Source: Macrostomum hystrix
Lineage: Eukaryota; Animalia; Platyhelminthes
Assembly (NCBI GenBank): GCA_950097015.1
Contig: CATNEN010000038.1
Coordinates: 21,576,001 to 21,640,000, forward strand
Direction: 5' to 3'
Length of the DNA stretch: 64,000 nucleotides
A program made the translations under genes and the position numbers. Below, piece by piece: positions 26,113 to 49,670 of the stretch (the stretch's first letter is position 1; every line of letters begins with the position of its first letter). The notes under the pieces are model-generated. The model searched no databases, was not told the DNA's origin, and was given only the letters and a program-made list of their open reading frames with translations.

Positions 26113-26499
26113 TTTTTCTTTTTCTTCTTTTTATGAATTAATGGCAATAGGGTTGCGATGTGATCGTAACCCTAATGTGAGATAAACAAAGCTACACAAA
26201 ATTATAACATGGTTAAGTAAAAATAGCAGATTTTAGGTAGCACTGTAAGAAAAAATAGCGAAAGTAGCGACCGATATTATGTTTTAGGTAATCTTTCATT
26301 ACCCGATTTTCCGTTACCAGATGGTCAGTTTCGATCGGTACCGCCATCACCGTTAATTTTTTGGTAACGCGCCTAACCCTGATTGCACCTTTGGGAGCTC
26401 ATATCTGTTCGTAAAAACGAGTATATGAGACTTGTTTCCCCAGACAGTTTCACGCAGATGTTTTTCCCGCGGATTCTCTCCCGCCGTGGAAAATCAGGA

Positions 26500-27840: not shown

Positions 27841-29207
27841 TCGAAAAAATATCTAGCAGACACAATATGCGGAAGTTGGAAAAGTTTAAGACGAAACTTG
27901 AAGGCGAATATAAAAGTCTAGAGAAGTAGCTTTTTTAGCCGATCTTCTGGCGTCCATTAGATCATTTTTGAGTGTGGCGGCCGCGAATTTGAAGTCTTCG
28001 TTGCCGCCAACAATATTGTTTGTCTCCTCTACGATGCGATATTTCTCGATTCAGCCTCTGCTAGGCTTTTCCCCTAGAAACTGTACGTGGACTGCACGGC
28101 CTCGCTTATAGGCCTTGCTTTTTGGTGGTAAACAAACGATTGCAGGCCACAGATAATTCTCACCGGGCCAGTATGCGGAAACAAGACTTACCTAATTTAA
28201 TTTTGGCGCTCAGCGGCTTGTCGGCGGCCGCGCTGACCAGCTGCCGCTTGCGGCTGTTGTCGGAGCCTGCAGCGCTCTGTGACTTTTTAGCCGTTTTAGG
28301 CGTAGCCTGGGCAATTGTCAAATTTAGAAGTGATAGAAAAAATGCCTGCTAGTTCTAAAACTGTAGGTTCATGACTAATATTAGAATTAGTAGGCTTTGA
28401 TAAAGTTTAACAGATAAAGTCTACTTTTCATCGTTCACACTACAATGCTCCTATGCCCACTGTATAAGCACTAGCTGTCTTTCTATATTATACACTTGTA
28501 GTACGCGTAAATTTCGAAAAAAGTCTAAAATTTTATAATGCAATCAAACTCACTCTTTTATTGCGGCCGAAATTATTTTTTATACAATCGACGCCCGGCA
28601 CGCCGGTACGCCTCGGTATGGACCTGGTAGTGGGGCCATAGCCACATCGGTACTGTGATTTAGTCTGTCGCCCAGGACTTTGAGATCATGGCCTTCCATT
28701 AAACCCTGTAAATTATAATTGTTTTTTTAAGTAAACCTAATATAGAAGATAGGGAATTTCCCAAAATACGGAAAGGAGAACAATTACTCAAGATAATTGG
28801 CATTAGCAAATGCTAAATAAACTAAATTAGCAACAGGAGTTTTGGCTGATTTGAAAAATTGACCTGAAAACTCGAAAATGTGACTGACATGCTGAATGGG
28901 TGAGCAGTTGAATGTGAATGTGATGGAGAATACTGAAGCTTTGAACAAAGACTGTAACCAAGTCAATGAATAAGCAAATTAATGTTAAGACGAATTTCAA
29001 CTTACCCGAGTTTCAACAAACTTGCGAAAATCTGTGTTTGTCATGCCACTGAGAATCGGATTAAACTTTCTCGGTAGGCGGCAAATAACCTGCCAAAATG
29101 GCCATATGGAATTTTGAGCAAAGGCTTGTAGCTGCAGCCCCTTCGTTAATTCGCTCTGTAACAACGCGCTGTAGAAGCTGGCGGCACTCCATGACGTTAA
29201 TTTTTGC

Positions 29208-29893
29208 AGTAGTATGCAAGAGGGGGCTTCTAGGACAAAAATAATCGCAGCCTCCATTATCCACAAACCATTACTTTTATTATTCCCGAAGAGATCAGGA
29301 AAATAGGGTCCCCGCCTCTCTCTAAAAAACTCCGTCTCCATATTCTAAATTCTATACTTCCCATATCATTTTGTGAGTTGAATATCTAGGACAAAAATTA
29401 TCGCAGCCTCCTTAATAAACAAACCATTACCTTTATTCTTCCCGAAGGTTCCCCGCCAATAAAAAATCTGTCTCTACAGTTTGTGAACTTGGACAAAAAA
29501 AATTATCGCTGCCACTCCCTAAAAGATCATGCCCAAAATAGTGAACCTGCAAAAAGCGTGCCAAGACAATCAAATTAGCACTAAAATCCCAATCCCCAAA
29601 CTCAAGACCCCAAACTTAGGGTGCTCATCCTCCGAAAAAAAAATTTAATTCTCATTAAAAATGCTCCCAATCGTCTCTCCAGGATCTTATTACAAAAGTC
29701 ATGAGCCTAATTACAAGAGTAAATACCGATGCAAACAAGAATGCAGCGAGTACATGAGAAAATATTGGCCCAACGTCGATATCAATGTCCCTAATATTAA
29801 TCAAGCTCTCCAAAGACACTGGTTTCATAAGTATGGAGTAACCATAAAGGACTATGACAGCTACTATAACTTTGCAGAAATCATTAAGCAGCT
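29208..29893 (+). repeat. Polinton left TIR (686 bp)
   Basis: Reverse complement of 43947-44553 apart from one extra subrepeat and scattered differences. Confidence 0.93.
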
Positions 29894-29897
29894 ATAG
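29661..29897 (+). CDS. Small TIR-embedded ORF (78 aa), unknown function
   Basis: AAAAATG start like the other viral genes; the right-TIR copy carries CAA>TAA. Confidence 0.55.
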   Translation: MLPIVSPGSYYKSHEPNYKSKYRCKQECSEYMRKYWPNVDINVPNINQALQRHWFHKYGVTIKDYDSYYNFAEIIKQL

Positions 29898-30128
29898 ACT
29901 TTCGATACGCTTTAAGACTTCTAGACTGCATTAAAATCGATATTTTTACGTACAAGCGTATGATATTTTGCTGTGTGGTGGGTGGTGTTGAGCGGATTGG
30001 GTACGGCAGCTGTTTCTTGCCATAGTTCATTGCGCGAGCGGCGTTGGTAGTCACTCCCAGTTGGCTCTAGCCCCCCCCCAATACGCTACTTAAAGGAAGG
30101 TGTTGAATAGCCGCATGAGAACTCCACC

Positions 30129-30932
30129 ATGAGTCAAACCGGAACTTTTTTTTCAATAAACGGAATACGGTTTATCATGGCCTTGTCAAAAGAGACAAGA
30201 ATTGCAACGATTGCCGAACTGGCGGTCTCACTGTCATCTAAAGAAAGGTCGGCAATGGGAAGCAGACTGAGCAGCTGGAAAGAAGAAGAGTTGGTAAGGT
30301 TTCAGGCGAGCTTGGAAAAGCTTGAAGGTGTTCCGGTTAAGAAGAGGGCGCTTCCCAAGAAAAAGGAAGAGAGCGAGCGAGAGAGAGTTATTGCAAGGAT
30401 ATACGCGAAGCTGGAAGAGAATGAGAGTCGCGGTGTAAAGTTGTCTCTGGGTGCAATTTCCGATGGTCTCAACTTGGTCGCCACGAATTTGAATGGAACG
30501 ACAAAGGAAGACTTGGAAGCGAGGTTTAAGAAGCTGACCTATTCTATCGAGAACCTGTCAACTGCTAAGGCCATGATGCAGTTTGAACAGGGGCGCTTAA
30601 TTCAAGTTTTGGTTTACAAGCACAAAATGAATTTGGAAGAGCTCGCCACCACTTTCAACATCAGCAAGCGAACAGTGGGAGACTACGACAAATTTTACTC
30701 TCTCTGTATCACGTACCCAGGTCTAATATTTTCAAGCTACACAATGGGAACCCTGCTTCGCTATAAATCAGTGATTGAAGAGAAGGCAAAAATTGATGAA
30801 CGCTTTGCTGATATATTGAAGATGCAAATCGAGGGTATTTCCCTGGATGATCAATATGAGAAGGATATCAAGTGCTGGTATGAAGAAAGTAAGTACATAA
30901 CATTTTTGTTGCAAATTCTGAAAGAAAATTAG
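30129..30932 (+). CDS. Polinton accessory protein with coiled coil and HTH-like segment, possibly spliced to 30975-31024
   Basis: LEELATTFNISKRTVGDY helix-turn-helix pattern; CCACCATG start. Confidence 0.7.
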   Translation: MSQTGTFFSINGIRFIMALSKETRIATIAELAVSLSSKERSAMGSRLSSWKEEELVRFQASLEKLEGVPVKKRALPKKKEESERERVIARIYAKLEENESRGVKLSLGAISDGLNLVATNLNGTTKEDLEARFKKLTYSIENLSTAKAMMQFEQGRLIQVLVYKHKMNLEELATTFNISKRTVGDYDKFYSLCITYPGLIFSSYTMGTLLRYKSVIEEKAKIDERFADILKMQIEGISLDDQYEKDIKCWYEESKYITFLLQILKEN

Positions 30933-31200
30933 TATAAAACAAACAAAACAAGTCGAACAAACAAACAAATTTAGGCATAGGAGAAGAAGAAGACGAAGCG
31001 GCCACAGTGGAGGTCTTGAACTGATCAAGACGAAGTACTGACTTTTGAATGACTATTATCTATGTTAAACAGTGTTGGCTTTTTTTCTCATTATTCAGTG
31101 TGTTAAAAACTTAATATGCTCTTATTTGTACTGGCATTTTTTCGCCTTCAGTAGTCCTTTATCTATTGGTGGAAGCATGTATATCTTTCAAAGCGCACGA

Positions 31201-31380
31201 AAGAGGCTCTCATTGGTTGCATTAATTTGACGAAAGTTCGTAAAAATCATGCGCAGCATAAAGCGGCTCTCATTGGTTGCATTAATTTGACGAAAGTTCG
31301 TAAAAATCATGCGCAGCATAAAGCGGCTCTCATTGGTTGCATTAATTTGACGAACGTTCGTAAAAATCATGCGCAGCACG
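31201..31380. repeat. Three 60-bp direct repeats with CCAAT-like and palindromic cores
   Basis: Period 60; ACGAACGTTCGT palindrome at 31350-31361. Confidence 0.9.
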
Positions 31381-31446
31381 GGGAAAAAGCTTGCCCAGCT
31401 CAAGGATCCCCTGCCTAGCTTCAAAAGCACCCATTTAGTTCCTTGA

Positions 31447-31893
31447 TTAAACCCCTGCCTTATCAACCCCCAGCTCTTTCAGCAGTCCTCCTAGTTCCTT
31501 ACTTGGCGCATGCAACACAAAACCCACCCCACCAATCCCCAACCCCAACTTTGTCTTACCAAAAATAACAGCTTTAACTAGCTTCCGAGCGATCGATTCC
31601 CTCCACCCGCTTGAAGCCCCTATATTGTCTAGCATTCTGAGCATTTCTTTGTCCCAGCGAGTCTTCTCCTCTGGAAAATCCCTATACTTAATATCATGCC
31701 ACATACAGACAGAGTCTAGCTCGTTCACAGGCTCATGCCCAGGATTTGGATTATTGTTTTTATCTAGCTGTATTTCAAGCGGATTCAAAGGCCCGCAATA
31801 TTTGTAGCCGGGAATTGTCCAGCCTTTGTTTGCTTTTCGAAGCTTTTCTACCAGTCCATGTGAATCTAGTTTACCACCAAAGCGTTGCATCAT
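31447..31893 (-). CDS. Parvovirus VP1u-type phospholipase A2 protein
   Basis: PGYKYCGPLN Ca-loop and PVNELDSVCMWHDIKY catalytic HD motif. Confidence 0.88.
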   Translation of the reverse strand: MMQRFGGKLDSHGLVEKLRKANKGWTIPGYKYCGPLNPLEIQLDKNNNPNPGHEPVNELDSVCMWHDIKYRDFPEEKTRWDKEMLRMLDNIGASSGWRESIARKLVKAVIFGKTKLGLGIGGVGFVLHAPSKELGGLLKELGVDKAGV

Positions 31894-31919
31894 TTTTATA
31901 AAAAATTAAATAAAAAATA

Positions 31920-32909
31920 ATGGCAGATCAGAAACTTCAAAAGCTCTACTACAGCGACAAAGGATTCTTTGTAGGAAAAAATGCAGTCACCAAACTCGCA
32001 GAACTAAGTAATGAATCAAAACAAACAGTTGAAAGATGGCTCTCTAAGCAAGCAGTTTACCAAGTCTATTTCCCACCTGTTAAATTTACAAGACCTCACT
32101 TTAACATCTATAAACCTAATGAAGCGCACCAAGCAGATCTTCTGTTTCTCCCCAATGACTCAGGCTACAAGTATGCGCTCACAGTTATAGACATTGCCTC
32201 CAGATATAAAGAAGCCAGACCGCTTAAAACTAAGAAGTCAGAAGCAGTTGCAGCTGCCCTCCAAGACATTTACAAAAACTCACCGCTCACATACCCACAA
32301 ACCTTTATGACTGATCCTGGCAAAGAATTCATGGGTGCAGTCAAATCCCTTATGGAAAAGAACAATACGAAAATGCGCTACGGAAGAACTGAGCTTCATA
32401 GAGACCAGGCTTTTGTTGAAAGATTCAATCTAACTCTAGCAAAGAGACTTTTCACAAAGCAGACAGCTGAAGAGCTGAAACTAAAAAGTGGCCAATACTA
32501 TACCAAGTGGACAGAAAGACTCCCCGCAGTAATAAGTCAACTGAACAATGAAGTATCTCGAATGACAAACCTGAAACCAAATACTGCCATCAAACAAGAC
32601 ACAGTTGAATCAAAACATCCGATCTCCCAATTCCCATTTCCAAAGCTCCCCGGCGTTTATTCTCCGGAAGTTCTTACTAACTCTGAATTCGTTCGCTTCC
32701 TTTACTTACCAGGAGAGCTGGAGAAGGACACAAAGAGAAGAGCAACAGACCCATACTTTAGTCTTGATGTACATAAGATAAACAGGCATTTCACATCAGC
32801 ATCCGGTGATTACTATTTTCTATCCCAAGACTTTAATTCAAAAGCCCCCACACGATCATTCACAAGGGCTGAGCTTCTAGTGATTCCACATGACACAGAA
32901 ATAAATTAA
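31920..32909 (+). CDS. int: Retroviral-like DDE (rve) integrase
   Basis: HQADL, TVIDIASRY, TDPGKEF, VERFNLTL; intact, 329 aa. Confidence 0.95.
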   Translation: MADQKLQKLYYSDKGFFVGKNAVTKLAELSNESKQTVERWLSKQAVYQVYFPPVKFTRPHFNIYKPNEAHQADLLFLPNDSGYKYALTVIDIASRYKEARPLKTKKSEAVAAALQDIYKNSPLTYPQTFMTDPGKEFMGAVKSLMEKNNTKMRYGRTELHRDQAFVERFNLTLAKRLFTKQTAEELKLKSGQYYTKWTERLPAVISQLNNEVSRMTNLKPNTAIKQDTVESKHPISQFPFPKLPGVYSPEVLTNSEFVRFLYLPGELEKDTKRRATDPYFSLDVHKINRHFTSASGDYYFLSQDFNSKAPTRSFTRAELLVIPHDTEIN

Positions 32910-32928
32910 AAAAATTTTTTTAAATAAA

Positions 32929-33360
32929 ATGATTGAAACCAGAACCGTGAATAAAATTAGCCGAATTATCGACTCTAAGAAGCCAGGAGTTGTATCAATT
33001 AAAGGTGTCAGAGTCAAAGTAGATCCAATCCAGCATATGATCCATTGTAACAATCAAACACACAATATCACTGATGAGAAGACAGGCGGGATTCTTCCTT
33101 TGCTAACTCTTATCCCCATCATCGCAGGTGCTCTTGGTGCAGCAGGAGGTGTAGCCGGCGGAGTTGCATCAGCCGTGAAGGCTGGCAATGACAGAGCACA
33201 TCAACGAGAGATGGAGAATATCGCTAGAGAAAAAGGAGTCAGAATCGGAATGGGTAGTTGTGAATCTGATGAATCAGCTGATGAATCAGTCAGCAAATCA
33301 GAAATCGTTAAAGCCATCATGACACTGCATAAAGCAGGATTTACAATACTCCGGATGTGA
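32929..33360 (+). CDS. Adenovirus pX (pre-mu)-like virion protein
   Basis: KTGG|ILPLLTLIPIIAGALGAAGGVA resembles adenoviral pX (xRGG|ILPLLIPLIAAAIGA). Confidence 0.75.
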   Translation: MIETRTVNKISRIIDSKKPGVVSIKGVRVKVDPIQHMIHCNNQTHNITDEKTGGILPLLTLIPIIAGALGAAGGVAGGVASAVKAGNDRAHQREMENIAREKGVRIGMGSCESDESADESVSKSEIVKAIMTLHKAGFTILRM

Positions 33361-33483
33361 AAACAGAACAGAACAGAATCTGCTCTAATAACTATATTTA
33401 GTACTGTTGGTAGTAGTTTGCCATACTTTACACTTTACTTGAGGGTGACTACCCTAAATTTTTTTTATAAGTTTTCATTAAAA

Positions 33484-36400
33484 ATGCCTAAAGCAATTCC
33501 AGAAAAAAAAATTGTCGAATCTTTCTTTCAAAATAATTGTCCTCAAGCTCAATCGTTTCAACAAAAAAGTCAAGTCCTGCAAGAGCTTTGCAGGCAGAAA
33601 TTCAATCAAGATCCAGGCTACCTCGGGAGCTATGCAATACAGCATGAAATTATTAATCAGCTTCTGCATTCAGAGCAGTACACACCAGTGAAGAAGCCGG
33701 CGACTGAGCATCAACAAAAGAGCCGCAGCTTAGTCAATAAGTATGAGACAGTCACAGGTCAAAATGTGTCGAAATACCCACAGAATAAGCAAGAGCAAGA
33801 AGATCTAGAACGTACAATCCACCAGGTTGAAGCAGAGCTACAAACTGAAGACATTAAATTTGCACAGAGAAAATTCACAGAGTATTATATTGAGTATACA
33901 ATCCAGGAAGACACCACAAATTCCCAATCCGACATTTACGACTTCAAAGACAGAATTCAATCAGTAATTGATCACACACTGAAGTCACGTAAGACCTTCA
34001 AGCTTCAGTTATCATTCAAGATTGAATTTTACATGCCTGCAAAACCCACTGAGCGTCTTGAATACTACATGACTACTAAAGCTCTACCCTTTACTCCCAC
34101 TGACACACAGGATCCTTTTCTTCAAGAGATCAGTAAAAAGATTGACGCCTTTACTTCCAGAGGATCAGGTTGGGTTGTCAATGGCATTCAAAAAGCTACA
34201 GTAATGATCATGAAATATGACCCTCTCAAAGCTTCATCATATATTGAGCTCCCGAAAAAGCTAGCGAGTAAAAAGGCTTGCATCAATGTGCAAAATTATG
34301 ACCAATGCTGCGCACTATGGGTAGTTTGGTCTGCAATATTGTATGAGAAAGATCGAGCCCATACAGAGAGAACTTCTCATTATAAAATGTATTTTGACGC
34401 AAAACTTTTAGAATGCCATGCTAAAGGAATTTCCTTCAATAGAGGCGGCTTGGCAATCGATCAAATCCCAAAGCTAGAGGAAGTCTTTAACAATAAAATC
34501 AGAATCACAGTCTTTGAATGGAATGAGAAGAGCGAAAAAGTACAATTAGTCAGAGCCAGCAAAAACACGCTAGATCCTGAAGGTAGGCGTCGCATAGATG
34601 TCGATCTTCTAATCATAGGTGATTTGCGAGAAAATGCCCACTACGTTTGGATTAAAGATCTTTCCAGGCTCCTCCACAAGCAAATGAACAATCATCATGA
34701 ATCGGTAGCAATCTGCCGTCTTTGTCTGAAGCATTATAGTGGACCCGATCGTGATGAAAAACTTAAAGAGCATGAACTGACCTGTGAAGATCATCCAACC
34801 AACTGCACACTTCCAACGGATAAGCATCTCAGATTTAAGAGTTATCACAAGATGGAGAAGCTCCCGTTTATAGTATACGCTGACTTTGAATGCACTATAA
34901 ACCCTGAAACCAATAAGCATGTCCCAAATTCTGTTGCGTATCTCTTTATTGGAAGAGACTCTTTTATTTGCTCAAACTATTTCTTAGGTGACCAGTGTGT
35001 TGAACAATTCATTTACTCGATGATGGAATTACAGAAAAATGTTGCTGCCATTCAGCCTGTTCCAATAACTATGTCCGATCAAGATGAAATCGACTTCGGA
35101 TCTGCAACTTATTGTCACATTTGCCGAAAGCTATTAACACCCTGCGACGCCAAAAACCACACAGTCAGAGACCACGATCACTTCACAGGAAAATTTAGAG
35201 GGGCAGCTCATAACACCTGTAATCTGAAACTACAGAAAAACATCCACGACCTTACCATTTTCTTCCATAACGGAAGGGGATATGATTATCACTTATTGGT
35301 TGAGAAGCTGGGTATGATACCAGGCATTAAACTAGATTGCATCGCAGAGAACAAAGAAAAGTTCAAGTGCATCGATATTAAGCAAGATTCAGGCAAGATT
35401 AAGATCAAAGATTCATTCCAGTTTCTGGCCGCCAGTCTCGATGCTTTGAGTAAAAATCTCACCGATGACCAATGTACTTATACCAAGATGCTGGCAGATT
35501 CCCTCAATCCTACCCCAGATTCATTTAAGCTTCTTAGAAAGAAAGGTGTCTACCCTTATGAATGTAATCGTGTCTTTGCAGAACCACTACCACCCAAGGA
35601 CAAGTTCTTTTCAAAGCTAACAAACTCTGGGATTTCTGATGAAGATTATGAGCATGCTCAGACTGTTTACAAACATTTTAACTGTCGAAACTTTCTTGAT
35701 TATCACATGCTTTACCTTTGGACTGATGTCTTTCTTCTAGCTGATGTATTTGAAACCTTTAGAAAGACCTGGTACTCTGCTTATGGTCTTGACCCCGCTC
35801 ATTATGTGTCTTTGCCTGCTACCAGTTGGGAATCATTGCTTAAAATGAAATGGGATCAAAATCCCAACTGGTACATCGAGCTGCTTACAGACATAGACAT
35901 GTACAACTTTATAGATTCATCTAAGAGAGGTGGCATCTCTATTTGTGTCCATAGGTATGCAAAGGCAAACAATCCGTATCTAGAAGACTATGATAAAGAA
36001 AAGCCTTCAAACTACATCCTTTACCTGGATGCCAACAACCTCTATGGTTGGGCTATGAGCCAAGATTTACCTGTTAGAGATTTTAGGTGGCTAACAGAAT
36101 GTAACACAGACTTTTCAATACCTGCGATCTATGAAGTTGATGTTGAAATCCCATGGGAACTTCACGACTATTTCTCTGACTTTGCCCCCTTCCCTGAGAA
36201 CATTAACTGTCCAAAGATAATCCAGTACAATGATGGAAGCTGGCAGCTATCTGAAAAAGAAAAAGAGCGTGTGAAAAAGTTAACACAAAATCTCATGAAC
36301 AAGACACGCTATAAAATCCACTACAAGCTGTTGCAGTATTTTATCTCCCTAGGTTGTAGGGTCACGAAAGTTCACAGAGCTCTCGCATTCACAGAAGAAG

Positions 36401-37275
36401 CGTGGATGAAGCCATACATAGAAAAAAACACCCAGTTTACAACTAAAGCAACAAACAGCTTTGACAAGGACCTGTTCAAGCTTGCAAACAACTCTGTCTA
36501 TGGCAAGACCCTAGAAAACGAACGCAACCGCACGAACCTGAAGCTCGTTACCTGTTATGAGCCTGGTGTCATTCAGAAAAGTTTATCAAAGCCCACTTTC
36601 AAAGAGCTTCATATCTTTAATGATTACTTGGGTGCCATACTGTTCTATAAGACTAAAGTTACCCTATGCAAGCCGATATTCACAGGTGTGACTGTACTTG
36701 ACGAATCGAAGCGCCTGATGTATGAAGTCTTCTATGACATGAAGCGGCAATATGGTGAACAACTGAAACTTCTATATACTGACACAGACTCCCTAATTCT
36801 AAACATACAGACTGAGGATGTCTATCAGGACATGTTGAATCAAAAACATCTGTATGACCTATCCGAATATCCAGAGTCCTTCAAGACTTTGAAAGGCGAT
36901 CAAGTACGCGACACTGGAAATCAAAAAGTTGTAGGAAAAATGAAGGATGAAACGGCTGGCACCCTCATTACAGAGTTTATCGGTTTGAGGGCAAAGTCCT
37001 ATTTTGTAAAAAGTTGTAAGTCTACCATTAAAAAATCAAAAGGAATCCCAAAACATGTTGTTAAAAACGATCTCCATGAAGCTTCATACAAGGACGCATT
37101 GATCAATAATAAAAGTACTACTCATGAATTTATGAAACTGCAGTCTAAGAACCACAATATTCACACAATTCAACAGAAAAAGATAGGCCTCTCAGGTGCC
37201 GATAACAAACGACATATCTTTGATGACAACATTAACAGCCTACCATTTGGACACTATAGATTAAATAATTTGTAA
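33484..37275 (+). CDS. polB: Protein-primed family B DNA polymerase (1263 aa from ATG 33484) with N-terminal TP/vOTU-like region and HNH/EndoVII insert
   Basis: Exo YADFE, HNGRGYD, YLWTDV; Pol LDANNLYG, KLANNSVYGK, YTDTDS; CHIC..RDHDH..GAAHNTCN insert. Confidence 0.96.
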   Translation: MPKAIPEKKIVESFFQNNCPQAQSFQQKSQVLQELCRQKFNQDPGYLGSYAIQHEIINQLLHSEQYTPVKKPATEHQQKSRSLVNKYETVTGQNVSKYPQNKQEQEDLERTIHQVEAELQTEDIKFAQRKFTEYYIEYTIQEDTTNSQSDIYDFKDRIQSVIDHTLKSRKTFKLQLSFKIEFYMPAKPTERLEYYMTTKALPFTPTDTQDPFLQEISKKIDAFTSRGSGWVVNGIQKATVMIMKYDPLKASSYIELPKKLASKKACINVQNYDQCCALWVVWSAILYEKDRAHTERTSHYKMYFDAKLLECHAKGISFNRGGLAIDQIPKLEEVFNNKIRITVFEWNEKSEKVQLVRASKNTLDPEGRRRIDVDLLIIGDLRENAHYVWIKDLSRLLHKQMNNHHESVAICRLCLKHYSGPDRDEKLKEHELTCEDHPTNCTLPTDKHLRFKSYHKMEKLPFIVYADFECTINPETNKHVPNSVAYLFIGRDSFICSNYFLGDQCVEQFIYSMMELQKNVAAIQPVPITMSDQDEIDFGSATYCHICRKLLTPCDAKNHTVRDHDHFTGKFRGAAHNTCNLKLQKNIHDLTIFFHNGRGYDYHLLVEKLGMIPGIKLDCIAENKEKFKCIDIKQDSGKIKIKDSFQFLAASLDALSKNLTDDQCTYTKMLADSLNPTPDSFKLLRKKGVYPYECNRVFAEPLPPKDKFFSKLTNSGISDEDYEHAQTVYKHFNCRNFLDYHMLYLWTDVFLLADVFETFRKTWYSAYGLDPAHYVSLPATSWESLLKMKWDQNPNWYIELLTDIDMYNFIDSSKRGGISICVHRYAKANNPYLEDYDKEKPSNYILYLDANNLYGWAMSQDLPVRDFRWLTECNTDFSIPAIYEVDVEIPWELHDYFSDFAPFPENINCPKIIQYNDGSWQLSEKEKERVKKLTQNLMNKTRYKIHYKLLQYFISLGCRVTKVHRALAFTEEAWMKPYIEKNTQFTTKATNSFDKDLFKLANNSVYGKTLENERNRTNLKLVTCYEPGVIQKSLSKPTFKELHIFNDYLGAILFYKTKVTLCKPIFTGVTVLDESKRLMYEVFYDMKRQYGEQLKLLYTDTDSLILNIQTEDVYQDMLNQKHLYDLSEYPESFKTLKGDQVRDTGNQKVVGKMKDETAGTLITEFIGLRAKSYFVKSCKSTIKKSKGIPKHVVKNDLHEASYKDALINNKSTTHEFMKLQSKNHNIHTIQQKKIGLSGADNKRHIFDDNINSLPFGHYRLNNL

Positions 37276-37291
37276 CATAATTTGTAAAAAA

Positions 37292-37690
37292 ATGACAACC
37301 AATATTTATTTAGAAGAGCTAGCTCAGCAATTAAAAATCCCAAACTTCCGAGGCGTCTTTATGAAGGATACACTGCCAGAAACCCCACTAGAAAAAGAAT
37401 GTGGAGTCATGAACTTTGACCCTGCAGAAAAGCCAGGTTCTCATTGGGTTTGTTGGGTAATTGATCCAATCCGTAAACACAAGTACTATTACTTTGATAG
37501 CTATGGAACTGCTGTACCTGAACAACTGAGAAATTATATGACTCATATGAGACATAAAATATACCGCTCAGACTTCATACTTCAGGGTATTAACAGTGAT
37601 ATTTGTGGTGAGCTATGTATGACTGTTTTGTATGCAATGACCCACACCCGAAAGAGTTACAAAGAAATCATTTTAGGGCTGAAAAAATAA
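37292..37690 (+). CDS. Adenain-like cysteine maturation protease
   Basis: GSHWV, YFDSYG, Q..SDICG (H/D/Q/C). Confidence 0.93.
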   Translation: MTTNIYLEELAQQLKIPNFRGVFMKDTLPETPLEKECGVMNFDPAEKPGSHWVCWVIDPIRKHKYYYFDSYGTAVPEQLRNYMTHMRHKIYRSDFILQGINSDICGELCMTVLYAMTHTRKSYKEIILGLKK

Positions 37691-37696
37691 TTTTTT

Positions 37697-37753
37697 TTAG
37701 GTCCTGTTAGGTCCTGTTAGGTCCTGTTAGGTCCTGTTAGGTCCTGTTAGGTC
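37697..37753. repeat. 10-bp repeat (ttaggtcctg) x5 between convergent genes
   Basis: Direct reading. Confidence 0.9.
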
Positions 37754-38373
37754 TTGTTCATTTTCGCTACTTTCGCCACATGCTGTTTGAACACATTCTC
37801 CAGATCATTTCTTAGCTGGCTCATTTCATCAATGGTATTTAGATTAAGCCTAACTCGCTGCTCATAGAGGTCTTGAATGTTTTTAAACTCATCCTCTGAA
37901 ATGAACTTGTCCTCAATCGCCTTTGAGATGTACCCGATGATAGAGTTTTGAACTGATTTCTCGTTTGTTTGCTTCGCATGTAGATGCTTTAGCTTTTGTC
38001 GTCTGTTCCTTGATAGTACTCCTGTAACTGCTGAAATCAGACCACATGCGGCGCCAGCAACTCCGAGTGGAATGGCGGCGATTGGCGCAGTGATTACAGG
38101 AAGTGTTGAAACAGCAGCTGCTGATCCCGATAGAACAGATACAGATCCAAGAAACATATTAAGGTAATCGAAGACCTTGCACTGGCTATTATAGCGCTTC
38201 AGTTTCTTAGTATTATGATCAATTTGCCGTTCAATATCATCTCGCATCTTTTGAATCTCCACCAATCTGAATTGCTGCGAGTTGCAAGTGAAAGTTGGGT
38301 AAAGGGGTTGTTGTGGGCTTGGGTTGTTTGGAGGCGCACTAGGTTCATATAGAGAGTTAATTTTTTCAGACAT
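37747..38373 (-). CDS. Membrane-hairpin protein with N-terminal PSAP/LYP motifs (possibly the adintovirus 'GasderminX' class)
   Basis: LYEPSAPP..PLYPTF, coiled coil, ~45-aa Gly/Ala-rich hydrophobic hairpin, basic stretch. Confidence 0.7.
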   Translation of the reverse strand: MSEKINSLYEPSAPPNNPSPQQPLYPTFTCNSQQFRLVEIQKMRDDIERQIDHNTKKLKRYNSQCKVFDYLNMFLGSVSVLSGSAAAVSTLPVITAPIAAIPLGVAGAACGLISAVTGVLSRNRRQKLKHLHAKQTNEKSVQNSIIGYISKAIEDKFISEDEFKNIQDLYEQRVRLNLNTIDEMSQLRNDLENVFKQHVAKVAKMNKT

Positions 38374-38407
38374 TTTTTTTCAAACAAAAAAAAATTATAT
38401 AAATTTT

Positions 38408-39136
38408 TTATGACCTTTCTCGCAAATCTGTTGCACGCCTTGCCGCCTCCCTTGATGCCTCTTCTGATGGTCCATCAGATACTCTTGCTTCTTCAATGTC
38501 AATGTCTGGCAGATTGTGCAGTCTCTCTAGTCGGCCGAGTCTTCTTTTCGTTTTCCCCCAGTCGTTGTATATCCTATTCAAATACTCAGTGTGTCTTGTT
38601 ACGTTTAGCCCCATGGGTCTTATTGTTTCCTTTGTTTCATTTGCTAGTCTCTGAAGAGTTGTTATATCTGACTCTGCTGCTGTGAGTCGCGAACTCAATC
38701 TATCATGCACAGTGCTTGATCTTAGCATAAAGGCTTCTAAATTTCGAACTTTATTTGAATTTTCTGTTACTCTTTCTTCCACCAAGTTTGCTCGATTATT
38801 AATGGCAGTTCTCAGAGTGGCGATGTCTGATCTTAGAGTGGCGATGTCTGATCTCAGAGTAGGTATCGCTGCAACAAGAGTATCCCGATCATGAACAAAC
38901 TGTACATATAGTATGTCAATCTCTTCCTTCCGCTTTGCTACGCTCAACCGCAGGTCTTCCATGTTTATTTGTCGTTGGTGTGTTGCCCGTTCTAGGGCTT
39001 TCAATCGATCTTTAATGAGTTTGATTTCTGGAATTTTTTCGTCAACATTTATATAACGCCTGTCAAGGTAAGAAACTTGAGCACTAGTGAGTGTGCTTCC
39101 GCGATCCAACGATTCACCTGCAAAATTAATAGACAT
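38408..39136 (-). CDS. Coiled-coil protein (fibre/stalk-like?), unknown function
   Basis: Heptad pattern, TLRSDIA repeated; AAAAATG start. Confidence 0.7.
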   Translation of the reverse strand: MSINFAGESLDRGSTLTSAQVSYLDRRYINVDEKIPEIKLIKDRLKALERATHQRQINMEDLRLSVAKRKEEIDILYVQFVHDRDTLVAAIPTLRSDIATLRSDIATLRTAINNRANLVEERVTENSNKVRNLEAFMLRSSTVHDRLSSRLTAAESDITTLQRLANETKETIRPMGLNVTRHTEYLNRIYNDWGKTKRRLGRLERLHNLPDIDIEEARVSDGPSEEASREAARRATDLRERS

Positions 39137-39161
39137 TTTTTAATAGAAATTTTAAATTAAT

Positions 39162-39962
39162 TTAAAATACAGTTCTGTTTTCTTTGTTGATCATCACAAA
39201 CTGGTAAGGTTGATTCCACTTGTCATAGCAAAGATTAACGAATTACTCCTGTGAAATCTTTCTGTTGGAGTTTTTTGTTGGATTTACAAAATAGGCAGAC
39301 GCAATGACCTCATTGTAAAATCTTTTTAGCCTGTCCTGTGGAATTGTTGGAAACAGGAGGATCAGATTGCAGCTCCCACGAATTGTTTTGTTCGGGAGCT
39401 CGAACCAGTTCTGGGCAATGTAAATTACGTTACAATTGTTGTGCCGTCCTCTTGTAAAATAGTTTTCTATCTGCTTCTGTGGGCCTGTCATGCAATCATC
39501 AAAGACAATCAAATGTTTTCTCCCCTTTTCTAGCTCATCTGGTTGGGGTAGAAGTTTGGTCTTAGGATCAACCTGCGGATCTCCATAGGTGAACACTTTA
39601 ATGTTCTGCCATTTTTCATTGTCTTTGAGGTACTTTGCATATTCGGCAGCTACAATTTCTGGGTTACTGTGAAGGCTCATTTGGTTATTAAAACATTGAA
39701 TAATGTGTTCTTTGTGCAGTCTGTTTTGAAGTCCAGAGATCAACATTTTATACTCATCTTGATACAGGGTGGGAGAGTAGATGTGCAGAGTGTCATAGTC
39801 GATAAAGCCAGGTCTAAGAAGCATGTTAAAGACTCTGAATGTTTTACCTGAACCTGATGAACCAACAACAATGCATCTGAAGTGACCCGGGATTGACTCA
39901 TGATGAGAAAACTTAATCTGATTACGTGTCCAGTGAGGATTGAAGTCATTTGAAAATTCCAT
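39162..39962 (-). pseudogene. A32/FtsK-like packaging ATPase with an in-frame TAA at 39243-39245
   Basis: GSSGSGKT, LIVFDD, RGRH..IYIAQ; the frame continues after the stop as FVNLCYDKWNQPYQFVMIN. Confidence 0.88.
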
Positions 39963-40005
39963 TTTTCTATGATGAAAAAAAATTAAAAAAAAGTAAATCA
40001 TTTAT

Positions 40006-40132
40006 AAGATGTGTCTTTTTGGGACTTAGATGTGTCTATTTGGGACTTAGATGTGTCTTTTTGGGACTTAGATGTGTCTTTCTGGGACTTAGATGTGTCT
40101 TTTTGGGACTTAGATGTGTCTTTTTGGGACTA
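40006..40132. repeat. 21-bp repeat x6 (agatgtgtctttttgggactt) upstream of the ATPase
   Basis: Direct reading. Confidence 0.9.
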
Positions 40133-40174
40133 GTCTTGTACCCTTACATGTCTTGTACCCTCGAAAAGTACCCT

Positions 40175-40576
40175 TTAGTCAAATTTGAAACCACTTCCTT
40201 TTTTAATGCTAGCTATGCTAGCTCTCATCTTCTCGTAGATTGCGGGGTCCACACTGTCTGGATTCGGGGCCAGCGGAGCCAATGGTGCCAATGGGGCCAA
40301 GGGTGGCTGAATATCTTGTGTTACAGTATCCTTTATCTTTTTAGCCGCAGTGACAACGCTTCCCACTGATTCAGCCACGTTCTTAATATTATCTTTGTTC
40401 TCACTAATGACTTTAAAGACCCGAGCACCCTGTGCAATCATGTCAGCAAGACCATTCCCGGAGCGTTCTTTCCTCGGATAGTGGCCTGCTGGGAAAAGTC
40501 CGGATCCACGCTTAATTAGATTAAGTTCCTCCTTGTCATAGTATTTGTCCACGTCTTTTTCGAAAATAATCAGCAT
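40175..40576 (-). CDS. Putative virion core/membrane-active precursor with G-x-G cleavage motifs
   Basis: KRGSG|LF, RSGNG|LA, KKGSG|FK; amphipathic helix after GNG. Confidence 0.65.
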   Translation of the reverse strand: MLIIFEKDVDKYYDKEELNLIKRGSGLFPAGHYPRKERSGNGLADMIAQGARVFKVISENKDNIKNVAESVGSVVTAAKKIKDTVTQDIQPPLAPLAPLAPLAPNPDSVDPAIYEKMRASIASIKKGSGFKFD

Positions 40577-40593
40577 TTTTATTAGGGAAGAAA

Positions 40594-41787
40594 TTATTTT
40601 TTGTTAAAACGTGAAAGCAGAAGCTCTCTTGCCCGTTTGTCGATATACTTCTTTTCCATCATTTTGTCCAGGATGTTGACAAATTCTTTTCTATTTTCGT
40701 CTCTCATGCCAGTCTTTGCAGCTCCAAGAAGAACAGCCACTCGCTTATAGATGTCAGAAATTCCTGTTCCAGATTTGGATCCTGTTCCAGGTGGGGTTGG
40801 CTGTTGTTGAAATGGGCTTTCAAATGACTGGTCAGTTCCGGATGAAGCTGAAGTGTCAGGTAGGGGTGTGTGCTGGGGTGTGAAAACTTTTTGCTTGATT
40901 CTATTCATTCGGTCTGGGGCGAATTGCTCCAAGTGATGCCACTCTGTTGGGTATTGTTCCTTATATTGAGCTACTTTCATGGGGTCGGACTGCTCGAGTT
41001 GACTCAGCACTTGTTCTTCTGTAAAATGTTGCTGTTGTTGTGGTGGTTGTTCTGGTGATTCGGGTTGTTGTTGTGGTGGTTGCTGTTCTAGATATTTTAT
41101 GGCATCTTCTTGATCTGGCAAACCGAACCATTGTTTAAAATGCTTGTACTTTTTGAATCTAGTCAGGATGACACTTTTGTCATGCATTATTTTCAGAACT
41201 TGTGGGACCTTTAGTATTTCTATATCTCTAGCAAGAGCAAAACTCACTAGATCTCTATAGTTCTTTAGCTGCTTGTCCGAAATTTTCTCTTGGTTCTTAG
41301 TCATAAAATTCAGTAAGGTTTCTGTGTAAATTATTATCTTAGTTTCTGAGCCTTTGACAACAGAAATATGGTTCTTGTTTATGTCGATATAATATTCCAC
41401 TGGTTCATTATAAATGTTTTTTCTCCACATACTTATTCCAAATACATATTTCCCATCATGTTCTACACGTTCTACTGGTCCAAAAATGTTATCCGTTACT
41501 TTTAGTGATTGTGATTGATGCGATTCTGCAGATTGCTGTATCTGCGGTGCTTCTGGAATTTTGTCCAAAGCCTTTTGCACCTGGGTTTCCTGTATGTCGT
41601 CAATAGTTTCTTTGACTTGATCAATATTTTTCTTAGCTTCTCCATACCCGGGTTTATGAAACTCTGTGGCTGCTTGGACAAACTCATTGTAGGATTGTTG
41701 CTCCTTATTGATTAGCCCGGTAACTCTCTTTTCTGCTTGTGCTAGCTTCTCCAATTCAGATATTTGGTGCGCATTTTTTCGCTTCAT
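40594..41787 (-). CDS. Conserved Polinton-type uncharacterised protein (397 aa)
   Basis: C-terminal GTG|ISDIYKRVAVLLGAAKTG..EFVNILD resembles the Polinton 'RL.LL.A...AGN' domain. Confidence 0.7.
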   Translation of the reverse strand: MKRKNAHQISELEKLAQAEKRVTGLINKEQQSYNEFVQAATEFHKPGYGEAKKNIDQVKETIDDIQETQVQKALDKIPEAPQIQQSAESHQSQSLKVTDNIFGPVERVEHDGKYVFGISMWRKNIYNEPVEYYIDINKNHISVVKGSETKIIIYTETLLNFMTKNQEKISDKQLKNYRDLVSFALARDIEILKVPQVLKIMHDKSVILTRFKKYKHFKQWFGLPDQEDAIKYLEQQPPQQQPESPEQPPQQQQHFTEEQVLSQLEQSDPMKVAQYKEQYPTEWHHLEQFAPDRMNRIKQKVFTPQHTPLPDTSASSGTDQSFESPFQQQPTPPGTGSKSGTGISDIYKRVAVLLGAAKTGMRDENRKEFVNILDKMMEKKYIDKRARELLLSRFNKK

Positions 41788-41819
41788 TTTTTATTATATT
41801 TTTTTTTAGTTTAAAAAAA

Positions 41820-43106
41820 ATGAACGACCCACTGACACCAGTTTTCTACAAAATTAACAAGCCTATTTTGAGTGATGATAGCACAATCAAAGCGACTCAA
41901 GTAAGAGTTCCCAGTCAGGAAAATCAGAATGAAACTAATATTGGTCCTGGTCAAACACTGACATTCACCTACAATGGATGTTCGTCTCTGGTTAGTGTGC
42001 ACAGTCTTAAGAGCGGCTTCCATATGACATTTCAATTCAAGACAAAGGGAGGTGCGGATGCAGCTCATGCTAACGTTGACAAGCATGATGCAGATGTGGC
42101 TCTGATTAGTAACTTTTGGGCGTACATGTTCAAGGAGTTTAGTGTATCGAATGGGAGCACAGAGTTGGAGCGAATCGCCAACTTTGGAATTGTCTATGAC
42201 GCTCATTGTTTGATCGAGAATCCAGATTTTATTCAGTTGGGGAGTGGTGCAGGTTTCATTGCAGATGAAAAAGAAGGAGGTATCAATGACAGTGGCTATA
42301 AAAAGAGGAAGAAGAGATACAACTATGCATTGCAAGGTGCTGATGATGCTGCTAAGAACCCGCTGTATCGGTCTGTTGATGTATTCGTACCACTGAGATT
42401 CATGAGTGGATTCTGTAATACATTTAATCGACTGACTAGTAACTTCAGCTACACCTTTAAGATGACTAGAGATGATCGCAGTAGAGTGTTGTGGACTGGG
42501 GCGGACCACACTGGGATGGAAGTGAAGCTAACCGGAATCGAGCTGTATTTGGAAGTCATTGAGCCAAAGACCGCACTAAAAGCAGATTATCTCAAGGCAA
42601 TAGAGAAGGACATTGATGTCGCCTACACGGCCTACATGTGTCGAGATGAGCGAAACGAAACCAGAACAAACATCTGCATTAAAGAGGGATCATGCAGCAA
42701 TCCAAGGTATATTATTATTAACCTGAGAAACCCAAATAACATTATACGCTACATGCATGGAGACGTGCGGTCCATTCAGCATGAAATCAGTGATAATCTT
42801 TACCCTGCACTGCCACAAAATGGAAATTTCAGTCAGAACAAGATTAGCAAATTTTACAGCGAGTTGGTCGACTTGGCTGTGAAAGAGAACAATGGAATTG
42901 CTATCACTGCTCTTCAATATGGAACTCTTTATCCGATGTTTGGCGCTGATGTGTCTGCCAGACAAATGCCTACTGATAACAGCCCTGTGAATATCGTGAC
43001 TAACATTGAGAGGACTGCCGCAACTGCTGTTGACCTGTACATTATCTATGCGTTCGAGAGGAAGGTGAAGCTTAACATGATCAACAATTCATCCAGTAAA
43101 GTTTAA
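41820..43106 (+). CDS. Double jelly-roll major capsid protein (428 aa from ATG 41820)
   Basis: DDSTI N-terminus, VPLRFMSGFC, YPMFGADVS motifs, size, and position next to mCP. Confidence 0.85.
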   Translation: MNDPLTPVFYKINKPILSDDSTIKATQVRVPSQENQNETNIGPGQTLTFTYNGCSSLVSVHSLKSGFHMTFQFKTKGGADAAHANVDKHDADVALISNFWAYMFKEFSVSNGSTELERIANFGIVYDAHCLIENPDFIQLGSGAGFIADEKEGGINDSGYKKRKKRYNYALQGADDAAKNPLYRSVDVFVPLRFMSGFCNTFNRLTSNFSYTFKMTRDDRSRVLWTGADHTGMEVKLTGIELYLEVIEPKTALKADYLKAIEKDIDVAYTAYMCRDERNETRTNICIKEGSCSNPRYIIINLRNPNNIIRYMHGDVRSIQHEISDNLYPALPQNGNFSQNKISKFYSELVDLAVKENNGIAITALQYGTLYPMFGADVSARQMPTDNSPVNIVTNIERTAATAVDLYIIYAFERKVKLNMINNSSSKV

Positions 43107-43131
43107 ATTTTTTTTTTTCGGGGCTAAAAAA

Positions 43132-43947
43132 ATGGAAGCGATTGCTGAAAGACTAAATAATATTATTTCTCACTCTAAGGAGAGCATTCCTATTACAATA
43201 GCTGGGCGAATTAATGACTCAAACGGGATATTTGTTGAAAAATTAGAGCAGGCGATTCGCCTGGATCCAAGTGCTAATTACCATGTATATCTTAACGACT
43301 TCACTGGTTGGTCAAACGTTCCCAATGTGACGGCAGCAAATAATAAGTTTCATTACAAATGGAAAGGTGTAGCAGCAGCAGAAGCTGTGGTATTCCCTGT
43401 GAGCACGCAAAGTGTGGATACCTACAATTACTTTCTAGAAAGTGTTTTTACTAAAAGAGGCCATTTTAAGACACCCAATGCGAGTAAGCCAGAGCAGAAA
43501 CTGTTCCCTGTCAAACTATCCTATGATCTCACTGTAATGAGAGTGGTCATGCAAGTTCACAAAGATGCTGAGGTTGAATTTAAAGATGACACTTGGTATA
43601 GGGAATTGGGATTCGAGAAGAAAGTGTATAAGGCAGAATCCGGGGAAAGCGGCTTGTTCTTAGCACCCAATATCGCAGACATTGTAAAGGGTTTGAATAT
43701 TCTAATCAGAAGTAATCTCAGTCTTGATTGGGTGTTTAAGGGAAAGCGAACGAATATTTTGTACAACATCTCAAACTCTGTTGCTGGAGGACAGATGCTG
43801 GTAGAGAAACCAAATCCAGTGAAAAGAGTTGTGCTAAGTAATAAGGAGATTCACGAGATTGTGCTGCAGTTTGAGACGGAAGATGGTGTTGGCGTTGATT
43901 TCAACGGTGAAGAGTTTGTATTGACGTTGGTCATTGAGAGAATGTAA
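43132..43947 (+). CDS. Minor capsid (penton) protein
   Basis: IRLD...Y.VYL...SNVPNVT..NNKFHY and C-terminal VDFNGE.F.LTL.I patterns. Confidence 0.85.
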   Translation: MEAIAERLNNIISHSKESIPITIAGRINDSNGIFVEKLEQAIRLDPSANYHVYLNDFTGWSNVPNVTAANNKFHYKWKGVAAAEAVVFPVSTQSVDTYNYFLESVFTKRGHFKTPNASKPEQKLFPVKLSYDLTVMRVVMQVHKDAEVEFKDDTWYRELGFEKKVYKAESGESGLFLAPNIADIVKGLNILIRSNLSLDWVFKGKRTNILYNISNSVAGGQMLVEKPNPVKRVVLSNKEIHEIVLQFETEDGVGVDFNGEEFVLTLVIERM

Positions 43948-44553
43948 GCTGCTTAATGATTTCTGCAAAGTTATAGTAGCTGTCATAGTCCTTTATGGTT
44001 ACTCCATACTTATGAAACCAGTGTCTTTAGAGAGCTAGATTAATATTAGGGACGTTGATATCGACGTTGGGCCAATATTTTCTCATGTACTCGCTGCATT
44101 CTTGTTTGCATCGGTATTTACTCTTGTAATTAGGCTCATGACTTTTGTAATAAGATCCTGGAGAGACGATTGGGAGCATTTTTAATGAGAATTAAATTTT
44201 TTTTCGGAGGATGAGCACCCTAAGTTTGGGGTCTTGAGTTTGGGGATTGGGATTTTAGTGCTAATTTGATTGTCTTGGCACGCTTTTTGCAGGTTCACTA
44301 TTTTGGGCATGATCTCTTAGGGAGTGGTTTGTGCATTATGGAGGCTGCGATAATTTTTTTTGTCCCAGATATGCAACTCACAAACTGATGAGGGATGTTA
44401 AAAGTAGAGAATTTAGAATATAGAGACGGAGTTTTTTAGAGAGAGGCGGGGACCCTTTTTTCCTGATCTCTTCGGGAATAATAAAAGTAATGGTTTGTGG
44501 ATAATGGAGGCTGCGATTATTTTTGTCCTAGAAGCCCCCTCATGCATACTACT
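43947..44553 (-). repeat. Polinton right TIR (607 bp)
   Basis: Inverted copy of 29208-29893; begins at the last base of the penton stop codon. Confidence 0.93.
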
Positions 44554-45106
44554 TTTTGCGGATCCATATTCTGAATCCGTATTGTGGCATTCCACCTGAA
44601 GGTAAAGTTAGGTTGCTCTTGTCTTTTGAATTTGTTGTGACGCAGCCCTCACCTCTGTCCTATCATTTTCATCTCTTTCTCATTCCCTGCCCCGCCAGTC
44701 AGCTAGCGTGCCCCCCACCCCAGTTCATATGTATCGATCGCCCCAGCCTACCCCTAATTGTTGAATGTACATCTCACCCGCCTTGCGCGCTCTCTTACCC
44801 CACCCCCTGTTTGCTTTGTCGCTAAAGCCCGGAGTTCTGTGGTGCCAACCTAGCTATATAGTTGTGCCCAGTTAATTAGAGCCTGCTAACCTCGTCTGCC
44901 CACCTGTTACGAGACTGTCTATTTTAGTGCAAACAAAACCGACCGGCTACTAACTGTTGCATCAGCCGAGATACTGTTATTCTGTTGTTGTTTCTCTGTC
45001 ATTCCTCCGGACGCGGGTCGAGCGGCGCTTTTCTGGGGACCTGGGGAGTCGCAGCTTACCCAACCTAGCTGTAGGCCTACCTGCACATTTAGTGAACCAC
45101 AACAAC

Positions 45107-45125
45107 TGGTGCCGTGACCAGGATT
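45107..45125 (+). promoter_or_regulatory. Primer-binding site complementary to tRNA-His
   Basis: TGGTGCCGTGACCAGGATT just after the LTR. Confidence 0.85.
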
Positions 45126-45213
45126 TCAGTTAGTGTCGCCCCGTGTCGAGATTCTGTCTTCGTCTAGTCCGTTTGGTACATTAACTCTATTAGTTACTTA
45201 GAAGTACGTTATC

Positions 45214-46146
45214 ATGGCTTTAGACAATCTGATCGATGCCCTGACGGCAAGGATCCAGGAGCAGCTGCATGTTGCCCAGCGTGTTCCCCGTCCTAACAAG
45301 TATGTCCCAACTCAGGACTTTGCCCTGTGGAGGCAGCAATTTGACACTTATTGTGAGGCCGCCCGGATCCCCGAGGATCAGCGGAAGCAAAACTTGCTCG
45401 ATTTGCTTGACTTTGGCACGGCATTTAAGGCAGTGGCCAACCTCGAGCTAGACGAAGATTTAGAGTACGATGACTTCGTTGCTCAGCTCGAGGCTCGCTT
45501 TACTCAGAATCGCACAGCCCAGGACTACAAGACAGAGTTTCAGGGCAGGAATCAGGGAGATGGGGAAGCTCTGGAGGATTACGCTGACGCTCTCAGAGAG
45601 CTCATGCGCAAGTCTTATCCAACCCAACGCGTCGAACAGAGAGATGAGCTGGCGAAGGACCGATTTTTGAAGGGCATCCGGGTTCCAGAGAGGGTGCTTG
45701 AAAATGTCTTGCTGCAGGACCCCGGCACGCTGCAGGCTGCTGTCCAGCGTGTGCGCCAGACCCTGGCTTCAATGAAACTGCTGGACGGAAAGCGCTCTGT
45801 CCACGCTGTGAACAGTCAGGCAGAGAGCCAAGTAGCTAGCATGGCTGCTGAGATTGCTGGCTTGAAGGAGGAGCTTGCGCAGCTGAAGCGGGGAGGGGCA
45901 TTGACCCAAACAGCTCAGTCGGACCCGCCGCCGAGACAAGCCGCAGCTGCTCGCACCGACAGGTCGTGCGGTCGGTGCCTTCAGTCGGGACACTCGACTG
46001 CGGAATGCAGAAACTCGGTGGTTTGCCTCGCCTGCGGTCAGTCAGGTCACACTCGCGCCCGGTGCCAGGGTCGTCAGGCTGGACCGGTGCAGGGAAACGG
46101 GATGAGGGCCCGGCCGGGCCAGCGTCCTGGGCCCTACCGACAGTAA
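45214..46146 (+). CDS. gag: Gag with two CCHC zinc knuckles
   Basis: CGRCLQSGHSTAEC and CLACGQSGHTRARC; intact, 310 aa. Confidence 0.9.
   Translation: MALDNLIDALTARIQEQLHVAQRVPRPNKYVPTQDFALWRQQFDTYCEAARIPEDQRKQNLLDLLDFGTAFKAVANLELDEDLEYDDFVAQLEARFTQNRTAQDYKTEFQGRNQGDGEALEDYADALRELMRKSYPTQRVEQRDELAKDRFLKGIRVPERVLENVLLQDPGTLQAAVQRVRQTLASMKLLDGKRSVHAVNSQAESQVASMAAEIAGLKEELAQLKRGGALTQTAQSDPPPRQAAAARTDRSCGRCLQSGHSTAECRNSVVCLACGQSGHTRARCQGRQAGPVQGNGMRARPGQRPGPYRQ
46092..46135 (+). promoter_or_regulatory. -1 ribosomal frameshift signal
   Basis: G GGA AAC heptamer in the gag frame, 6-nt spacer, AGGGCCCGG/CTGGGCCCT stem; the -1 frame is the protease ORF. Confidence 0.8.
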
Positions 46147-49540: not shown

Positions 49541-49670
49541 GGCGAATAAATTTATTAGCTCTAAAATTCAGTATTCAGTATTAGCTTCTGAAATGACAGT
49601 CAGTAGAGTTCTGTAGATTGTCGAGCAGGTGATGGAAGAGGTGACTTGTATGAGGTGGGTTTTATCGTCC

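Follow-up and report, generated by a model that had tools for sequence, protein, structure and literature searches.

A probable full-length Polinton/Maverick in the Macrostomum hystrix genome: a recent insertion from a young family, likely defective in packaging

A 64,000-nt window of the Macrostomum hystrix genome, the whole stretch of DNA analysed here, carries at positions 29202..44559 (target-site duplications, TSDs, included) an element of 15,346 bp that is organized as a Polinton/Maverick. Perfect TTTTGC duplications abut termini that read AGTAGT (starting at 29208) and ACTACT (last base 44553), and the terminal inverted repeats (TIRs) are 97% identical over their outer 152 nt and 99% identical (377/382) over an inner 382 nt. 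By a hand estimate (0.26^6), six identical base pairs next to the two TIR ends would arise by chance about once in 3,000. The element thus has the ends of the (AGT)2//(ACT)2 type, the TIRs and the 6-bp TSD by which Polintons/Mavericks are recognized. It also has their genes, namely an rve (DDE) integrase and a protein-primed DNA polymerase B (pPolB) that carries exonuclease and palm motifs, together with the double-jelly-roll (DJR) major capsid protein (MCP), A32/FtsK ATPase (interrupted here by a premature stop) and adenain protease of the Eupolintoviridae. We consider it very probable that this is a full-length integrated Polinton/Maverick of the adintovirus type with a DJR capsid, that it inserted recently and is likely defective in packaging, and that it belongs to a young, likely mobile family. 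An initial annotation of the locus had proposed a Polinton/adintovirus with an integrase scar, and the hallmark genes and the ends, TIRs and TSD, all located at exact coordinates, bear this out (Table 1).

Genes were identified by Pfam searches with cutoffs, location of motifs, homolog searches and profile searches, and related loci were fetched for comparison, including the metagenomic Polinton-like contigs L081, L082 and L088 (IMG/VR). The 14 open reading frames (ORFs) occupy 84% of the element (12,876/15,346 nt) with no frameshift in any core gene, in agreement with the tight packing described initially. There are two nonsense changes; the first interrupts the ATPase gene and the second the 78-amino-acid (aa) ORF where it recurs in the right TIR. 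We assume that these are the two that had been noted before. The TIR arms differ by 79 nt in a block of subterminal repeats, of which the left arm has one extra. The repeat, GGACAAAAA..ATCGC.GCC, has three copies at 29229-29513 in the left TIR and two at 44319-44532 in the right, and may be a site where a protein binds at the origin. An Rfam search of positions 28000-46000 returned 0 matches, group I introns included.

Table 1. Positions of the features of the element within the window
Feature	Position	Strand	Remarks
Left TSD, TTTTGC	29202..29207	+	
Left TIR, 686 nt	29208..29893	+	starts AGTAGT; contains three subterminal repeat copies and the 78-aa ORF
78-aa ORF within TIR	29661..29897	+	start context near-identical to pPolB start; one weak homolog, E 0.004
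ORF2, helix-turn-helix-like protein	30129..31024	+	CCACC-ATG start; probable 86-nt intron at 30889-30974; faint sub-cutoff helix-turn-helix matches
Three 60-nt tandem repeats	31200..31378		between ORF2 and PLA2
PLA2-like protein (parvovirus VP1 type), 148 aa	31447..31893	-	PF08398 E 1.5e-14
rve integrase, 329 aa	31920..32909	+	PF00665 E 2.2e-9, 37.9 bits (cutoff 32.6); D-D-E motifs
Adenovirus protein X-like core protein, 143 aa	32929..33360	+	PF05829 25.4 bits (cutoff 25)
pPolB, 1263 aa	33484..37275	+	homologs; exonuclease, palm and vOTU-type Cys/His motifs
Adenain-type maturation protease, 132 aa	37292..37690	+	PF00770 22.7 bits (cutoff 21.3); H-D-Q-C motifs
SLATT-like protein, 208 aa	37747..38373	-	central hydrophobic hairpin; 5 homologs in fetched loci; faint sub-cutoff SLATT matches
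Coiled-coil protein, 242 aa	38408..39136	-	coiled-coil-type noise matches only; no significant homolog
A32/FtsK-type packaging ATPase	39162..39962	-	PF04665 above cutoff; stop at 39243-39245
Gly-rich protein, 133 aa	40175..40576	-	weak profile match, E 0.005
397-aa protein	40594..41787	-	no significant homolog
MCP, predicted double jelly roll, 428 aa	41820..43106	+	AlphaFold2, Foldseek; Pfam sub-cutoff
Probable minor capsid protein (penton), 271 aa	43132..43947	+	homologous to ORFs of 8 Polinton-like loci that were fetched (best E 4.9e-13)
Right TIR, 607 nt	43947..44553	-	terminates ACTACT; contains the second 78-aa ORF copy, with a stop at 44027-44029
Right TSD, TTTTGC	44554..44559	+	

The initial annotation had staked the identification on a double jelly roll encoded by the ORF upstream of the penton candidate. 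Against PF21738 the protein scored 23 bits, below the cutoff of 27, and the fold was approached by modelling. An AlphaFold2 model based on a 105-sequence alignment from a profile search (537 representatives, E<=0.001) reached a predicted local distance difference test score (pLDDT) of 93.7 and a predicted template modelling score of 0.91; an earlier model, for which only 10 sequences had been aligned, scored low (pLDDT 52.5) and was discarded. In Foldseek, the model matched the capsid proteins of PBCV-1 (Vp54, E 3e-19), Sputnik (TM 0.63), an iridovirus, mavirus and PRD1, as well as virophage, MELD and adintovirus entries. On the strength of this model the MCP folds as a double jelly roll, as had been predicted. 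Nine sequences among 4003 candidates matched it, at 66-78% and 43-44% identity and none of them named, and they make up a long-branch clade with a support of 1.0. Scans for capsid-pattern loci found no relative among the pattern matches in viral (0/14) or metagenome (0/210) contigs. In the sister capsid group (P0157-P0168 and kin, 470-500 aa), the profile matches in two stretches split at 156-157, which points to an insertion there in the sister capsids.

The ORF behind the MCP is probably the penton, as judged from homology and position; in the Eupolintoviridae the penton is a single jelly roll. The ORF has no match in Pfam, NCBIfam or PHROGs, and its comparison with the capsid profile gave no match.

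Among 7985 candidates scored for pPolB, 6644 were homologs at E<=1e-50, and those listed are 38-46% identical. The polymerase carries an endonuclease VII-like insert (PF02945), and its N-terminal side has Cys (276) and His (386) motifs that may represent a vOTU domain (PMC11161782); Pfam gives no OTU match. No chromodomain match was found in the integrase. The 208-aa protein is conserved among related Polintons. The 242-aa coiled-coil protein could, at a guess, be a fibre or spike, and the Gly-rich protein is possibly a core protein processed by the protease. Comparison of the 397-, 242- and 133-aa ORFs with their positional counterparts in relatives gave no significant match (E 0.35, 0.83 and 0.005, respectively; 14 targets), and Pfam searches of the element's 14 ORFs returned no match to TBP, TFIIB or gasdermin.

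Beyond its anatomy, capsid fold and dispersed young copies, what can be said of the element's replication, particles and expression follows from the biology of the family. The linear genome would be copied from its TIR ends by pPolB, primed by the polymerase's own terminal-protein domain, and the vOTU domain would release that domain. The rve integrase would insert the genome and leave the 6-bp duplication. The capsid and penton proteins would build an icosahedral shell, into which the ATPase would pump the DNA before or after maturation by the protease. PLA2 and protein X would be carried in the particle for entry.

The copy in the window is unlikely to complete this cycle by itself. If the ATPase gene is read through its stop, 26 more residues follow, and these align with a conserved tail in 4/4 related ATPases, which indicates that the stop is premature. 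Contigs of public sequencing runs (X1, X2, X3 and X5, compared as assembled contigs) show that the stop is private to the window copy: it is matched by about 75 of a depth of 1,220 in X1 and by none in X2 or X5. Since the Walker motifs precede the break, residual ATPase activity is possible. Nevertheless, on its own the window copy probably cannot package DNA, and the description of it as nearly virion-competent in the initial annotation was too generous, given the loss of 26 conserved codons to a private stop. It could still supply proteins to other copies, or borrow them, in trans.

Parts of the element's left two thirds occur in 13 runs from 7 studies, 8 of which contain 0.42-0.65 of its words. 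A run guessed to be RNA, X11, yielded 12 short pieces of low depth and was left aside. In X1, a left-flank contig with zero differences from the window has a depth of 84.5 and stops 28 nt into the element, and the main body contigs have depths of 1,045-1,802, i.e., 12-21 times that of the flank contig. As a rough guide and not an exact copy number, this depth would fit some 10-20 copies of the family. Other flanks are joined to the element end (before 29208) in 4 contigs of X2 (agreement 0.57) and 2 contigs of X5. Judged by flanks and not by TSDs, there are multiple dispersed copies. An alternative explanation for the high depth in X1 is that it stems from free replicating genomes and not from many integrated copies. 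The 12-21-fold excess over the flank contig would be expected in that case as well, but the many variant contigs at single-copy depth (60-90) and the several flanks point to distinct integrated copies and make free genomes very improbable as the source.

The X5 contigs differ from the window at 17/1,135, 22/1,337 and approximately 24/1,680 letters (about 1.5%), with up to 2-3% elsewhere, so that copies of the family are approximately 1-3% apart. Coding differences were drawn from the best-supported rows (40 of 490 and the best 40 of 119), which do not amount to a full dN/dS, and 32/55 of those listed fall at third codon positions (p 1.4e-4); the corresponding figures are 15/26 for the core genes (p 0.009) and 2/6, with no excess, for the MCP alone. 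None of the listed indels inside genes shifts the reading frame. The dispersed flanks, the low divergence and the third-position excess uphold the initial proposal of recent activity at the level of the family, which appears from these sequence comparisons to have been recently active under purifying selection. The 10-nt array is one of three short tandem arrays in intergenic gaps (31200-31378, 60-nt unit; 37697-37758, 10-nt unit; 40007-40131, 21-nt unit), and it is shorter in contigs of X1, X2 and X5 than in the window.

It is possible, although we doubt it, that the family now exists only as an intracellular self-synthesizing transposon, with the capsid, penton and ATPase genes persisting as recent relics that form no particles. 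According to Barreat and Katzourakis, nobody has observed particles of Mavericks (PMC8097293), neither particles nor free ends are shown here, and the window copy tolerates a stop in its ATPase gene. That stop is absent from other copies, however, the capsid frames are open, and relatives at 71-78% and 43-45% identity have a capsid protein of full length. The third-position excess also speaks against relics, though the MCP alone does not show it. The family is likely still mobile and may make virus particles.

The way in which the genes begin may bear on how such an element is expressed. AAAA-ATG starts are found in 11/14 ORFs (AAA-ATG in 12) versus 9/557 other ATGs, the 30 nt upstream of the start are at least 80% AT in 13/14 ORFs, and the starts of divergent ORF pairs are merely 26 and 32 nt apart. 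ORF2, in contrast to the other genes, has an upstream spacer of 231 nt of ordinary composition. Its probable intron, overlooked in the initial annotation, has canonical borders (GTAAGT...TTTAG) and is skipped exactly in one X3 contig (depth 31), which could derive from spliced RNA or from DNA that lacks the intron, X3 being a DNA run by guess only; the intron is retained in contigs of X1 and X2. The second exon is a short acidic tail that reads IGEEEDEAATVEVLN-stop. Given its low depth in X1 (107-181), ORF2 appears to be present in a minority of copies. No homologs of ORF2 were found in viral contigs (0/20) or PDB, PHROGs gave only a faint match, and Atlas gave only weak unnamed leads (best 0.90). 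ORF2 is likely an optional gene, putatively a regulator, that is transcribed by host RNA polymerase II and spliced, and the other 13 genes likely form a late class whose promoters are very short and AT-rich. Beside the ORF2 cassette, near the PLA2 N-terminus, 11 differences between the window and all four runs are clustered at 31833-31880, which suggests that the window copy arose by recombination or represents a variant subfamily. The T-tracts were also considered as trans-splicing acceptors, and this idea was rejected; an AG follows the tract in some genes only.

The AT-rich starts resemble poxvirus late promoters, in which a T-rich core and a short spacer lead up to a TAAAT that overlaps the start (PMC5294985). 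One might propose from this that the element is a virophage-like satellite whose starts, nearly devoid of untranslated leaders, are promoters for the polymerase of a co-infecting large DNA virus. The start statistics given above are what such a satellite would display, and elements of the Mavpol type have been found with entomopoxviruses (PMC11296320). We nonetheless regard a satellite as improbable. The element mostly has longer A runs, with the exact TAAAT not the rule, no helper virus is in evidence, and ORF2 resembles a nuclear, spliced gene. Moreover, the same style of start was found in 8/41 stretches scored (the window and 7/40 relatives, L081, L082 and L088 among them), which makes it a clade trait that may reflect A-rich context in compact spacers; a first notion that it was peculiar to this element was dropped for the same reason. 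No literature on the promoters of animal Polintons was found. Returning to a self-sufficient Polinton family, we think it unlikely, though of interest, that this is an active animal Polinton virus family of a flatworm that can be cultivated in the laboratory, with a two-tier programme comprising an optional, spliced and host-transcribed regulator (ORF2) and 13 late-type genes with AT-rich spacers of 16-34 nt. If so, it would make both the particles and the transcription of animal Polintons tractable to study.

Several points weigh against the interpretation as a complete element of a recently active family with a spliced regulator. The ORF2 intron rests on one contig from one of four runs. The pPolB of the window has no Pfam match to PF03175, and a profile of the penton candidate finds nothing in PDB. 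The 28 nt by which the X1 flank contig enters the element fall short of the 31 letters that our tool requires at minimum for a bridge between element and flank, and the window itself may derive from X1. The 55 coding differences come from the best-supported rows only. Finally, an empty site was not seen in the run contigs, and the runs, as contigs only, show no virion, free linear end or transcript.

With respect to known systems, the adintovirus family is now the Eupolintoviridae of the order Amphintovirales (PMC12451622). The element likely belongs to the Alpha class of Starrett et al. because of its PLA2, protein X and SLATT-like genes and its named pPolB matches, which include Stylophora, Mytilus and snake, hosts that appear under Alpha (PMC8502044). 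The lack of a gasdermin match also fits that class, which has no GasderminX or Cupiennin. The element shares with Alpha adintoviruses a pPolB (with a putative OTU domain here), an rve integrase, adenain, an FtsK/A32 ATPase, a hexon, a penton candidate, PLA2, protein X, a SLATT-like gene and TIRs (PMC8502044). It differs in having PLA2 and protein X as separate ORFs where Alpha adintoviruses have one PLA2X, in a capsid that falls in a long-branch unnamed clade and below the Pfam cutoff, in a pPolB without a PF03175 match, and in ORF2, for which no homolog was found. Beta was considered and dropped; the hosts of the named pPolB matches are listed under Alpha, and 4/8 close pPolB homologs tested pass the PF03175 cutoff (46-71 bits). 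Vertebrate Mavericks have the same 5'-(AGT)2//(ACT)2-3' ends, 6-bp TSD and intronless core genes, and the element lies within their ranges of size (12.7-24.6 kb) and TIR length (46-1,447 bp); its gene order differs, with the integrase beside pPolB and the ATPase on the opposite strand near the capsid genes, it has PLA2, and PZ, PW and PM were not identified in it (PMC8097293). L081, L082 and L088 have in common with the element pPolB, protease, ATPase, PLA2, capsid, penton candidate and short AT-rich spacers, but at only 20-40% identity and in other gene orders, and they contain no significant homolog of ORF2 or of the 242- or 397-aa ORF.

The gene set, ends and scar are thus those of a textbook Polinton/Maverick, and what is new at the sequence level is the lineage: the best capsid match is 78% identical and unnamed, and the best pPolB match is 46% identical. 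Complete capsid-bearing Polintons are common in animal genomes, and the element by itself is unsurprising. There are 134 intact Mavericks in vertebrates (PMC8097293), coral Polintons are abundant and expressed, with more than 1,000 regions in some corals (PMC11131425), and planarian Polintons are piRNA targets (PMC8532177). The initial suggestion of an undescribed lineage holds insofar as no near-identical described element was found, but flatworm Polintons as such have already been catalogued. Two of the catalogued assemblies are presumably of Macrostomum lignano. Jeong et al. listed 748 integrase-linked pPolB1 genes in 8/73 flatworm genomes, the two assemblies having 175 and 78 rows (15 of each examined), and the rows give counts and coordinates without capsids, ends or activity (PMC10748475). 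In some rows of these two, the integrase starts approximately 1.55 kb before pPolB, versus 1,564 nt in the element, a likeness of coordinates only (PMC10748475). The excerpted supplement of Starrett et al. contains no Macrostomum or flatworm term (PMC8502044), and no description of a Macrostomum Polinton was found in the literature searched, Repbase and subscription papers lying outside its scope. The practical value of the element is that of a young multi-copy family whose host genus serves as a laboratory model. A divergent capsid clade is added by it as well, and the comparison of ORF2 with the other genes bears on how Polintons are transcribed.

The surroundings of the element contain other mobile DNA. 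A Ty3/gypsy long terminal repeat (LTR) retrotransposon begins 23 nt beyond the right TSD (44583-45104, 45202-48700), with a probable 5' LTR (TG...CA), a sequence resembling a primer-binding site (TGGTGCCGTGACC) and then gag, protease and reverse transcriptase-RNase H in pieces; its LTR is multi-copy in X1. Pieces of a mariner-type transposase, pieces of a LINE-type reverse transcriptase and an MFS transporter exon are located at 15599-16586, 25507-26171 and 49091-49546, respectively. An ABCC transporter exon lies at 62693-63400, of which 62750-63397 is 94% identical to ABCC of M. lignano, the best matches from other species being 45-58% identical; this likely places the host near M. lignano. 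The window is also rich in minisatellites (63 rows).

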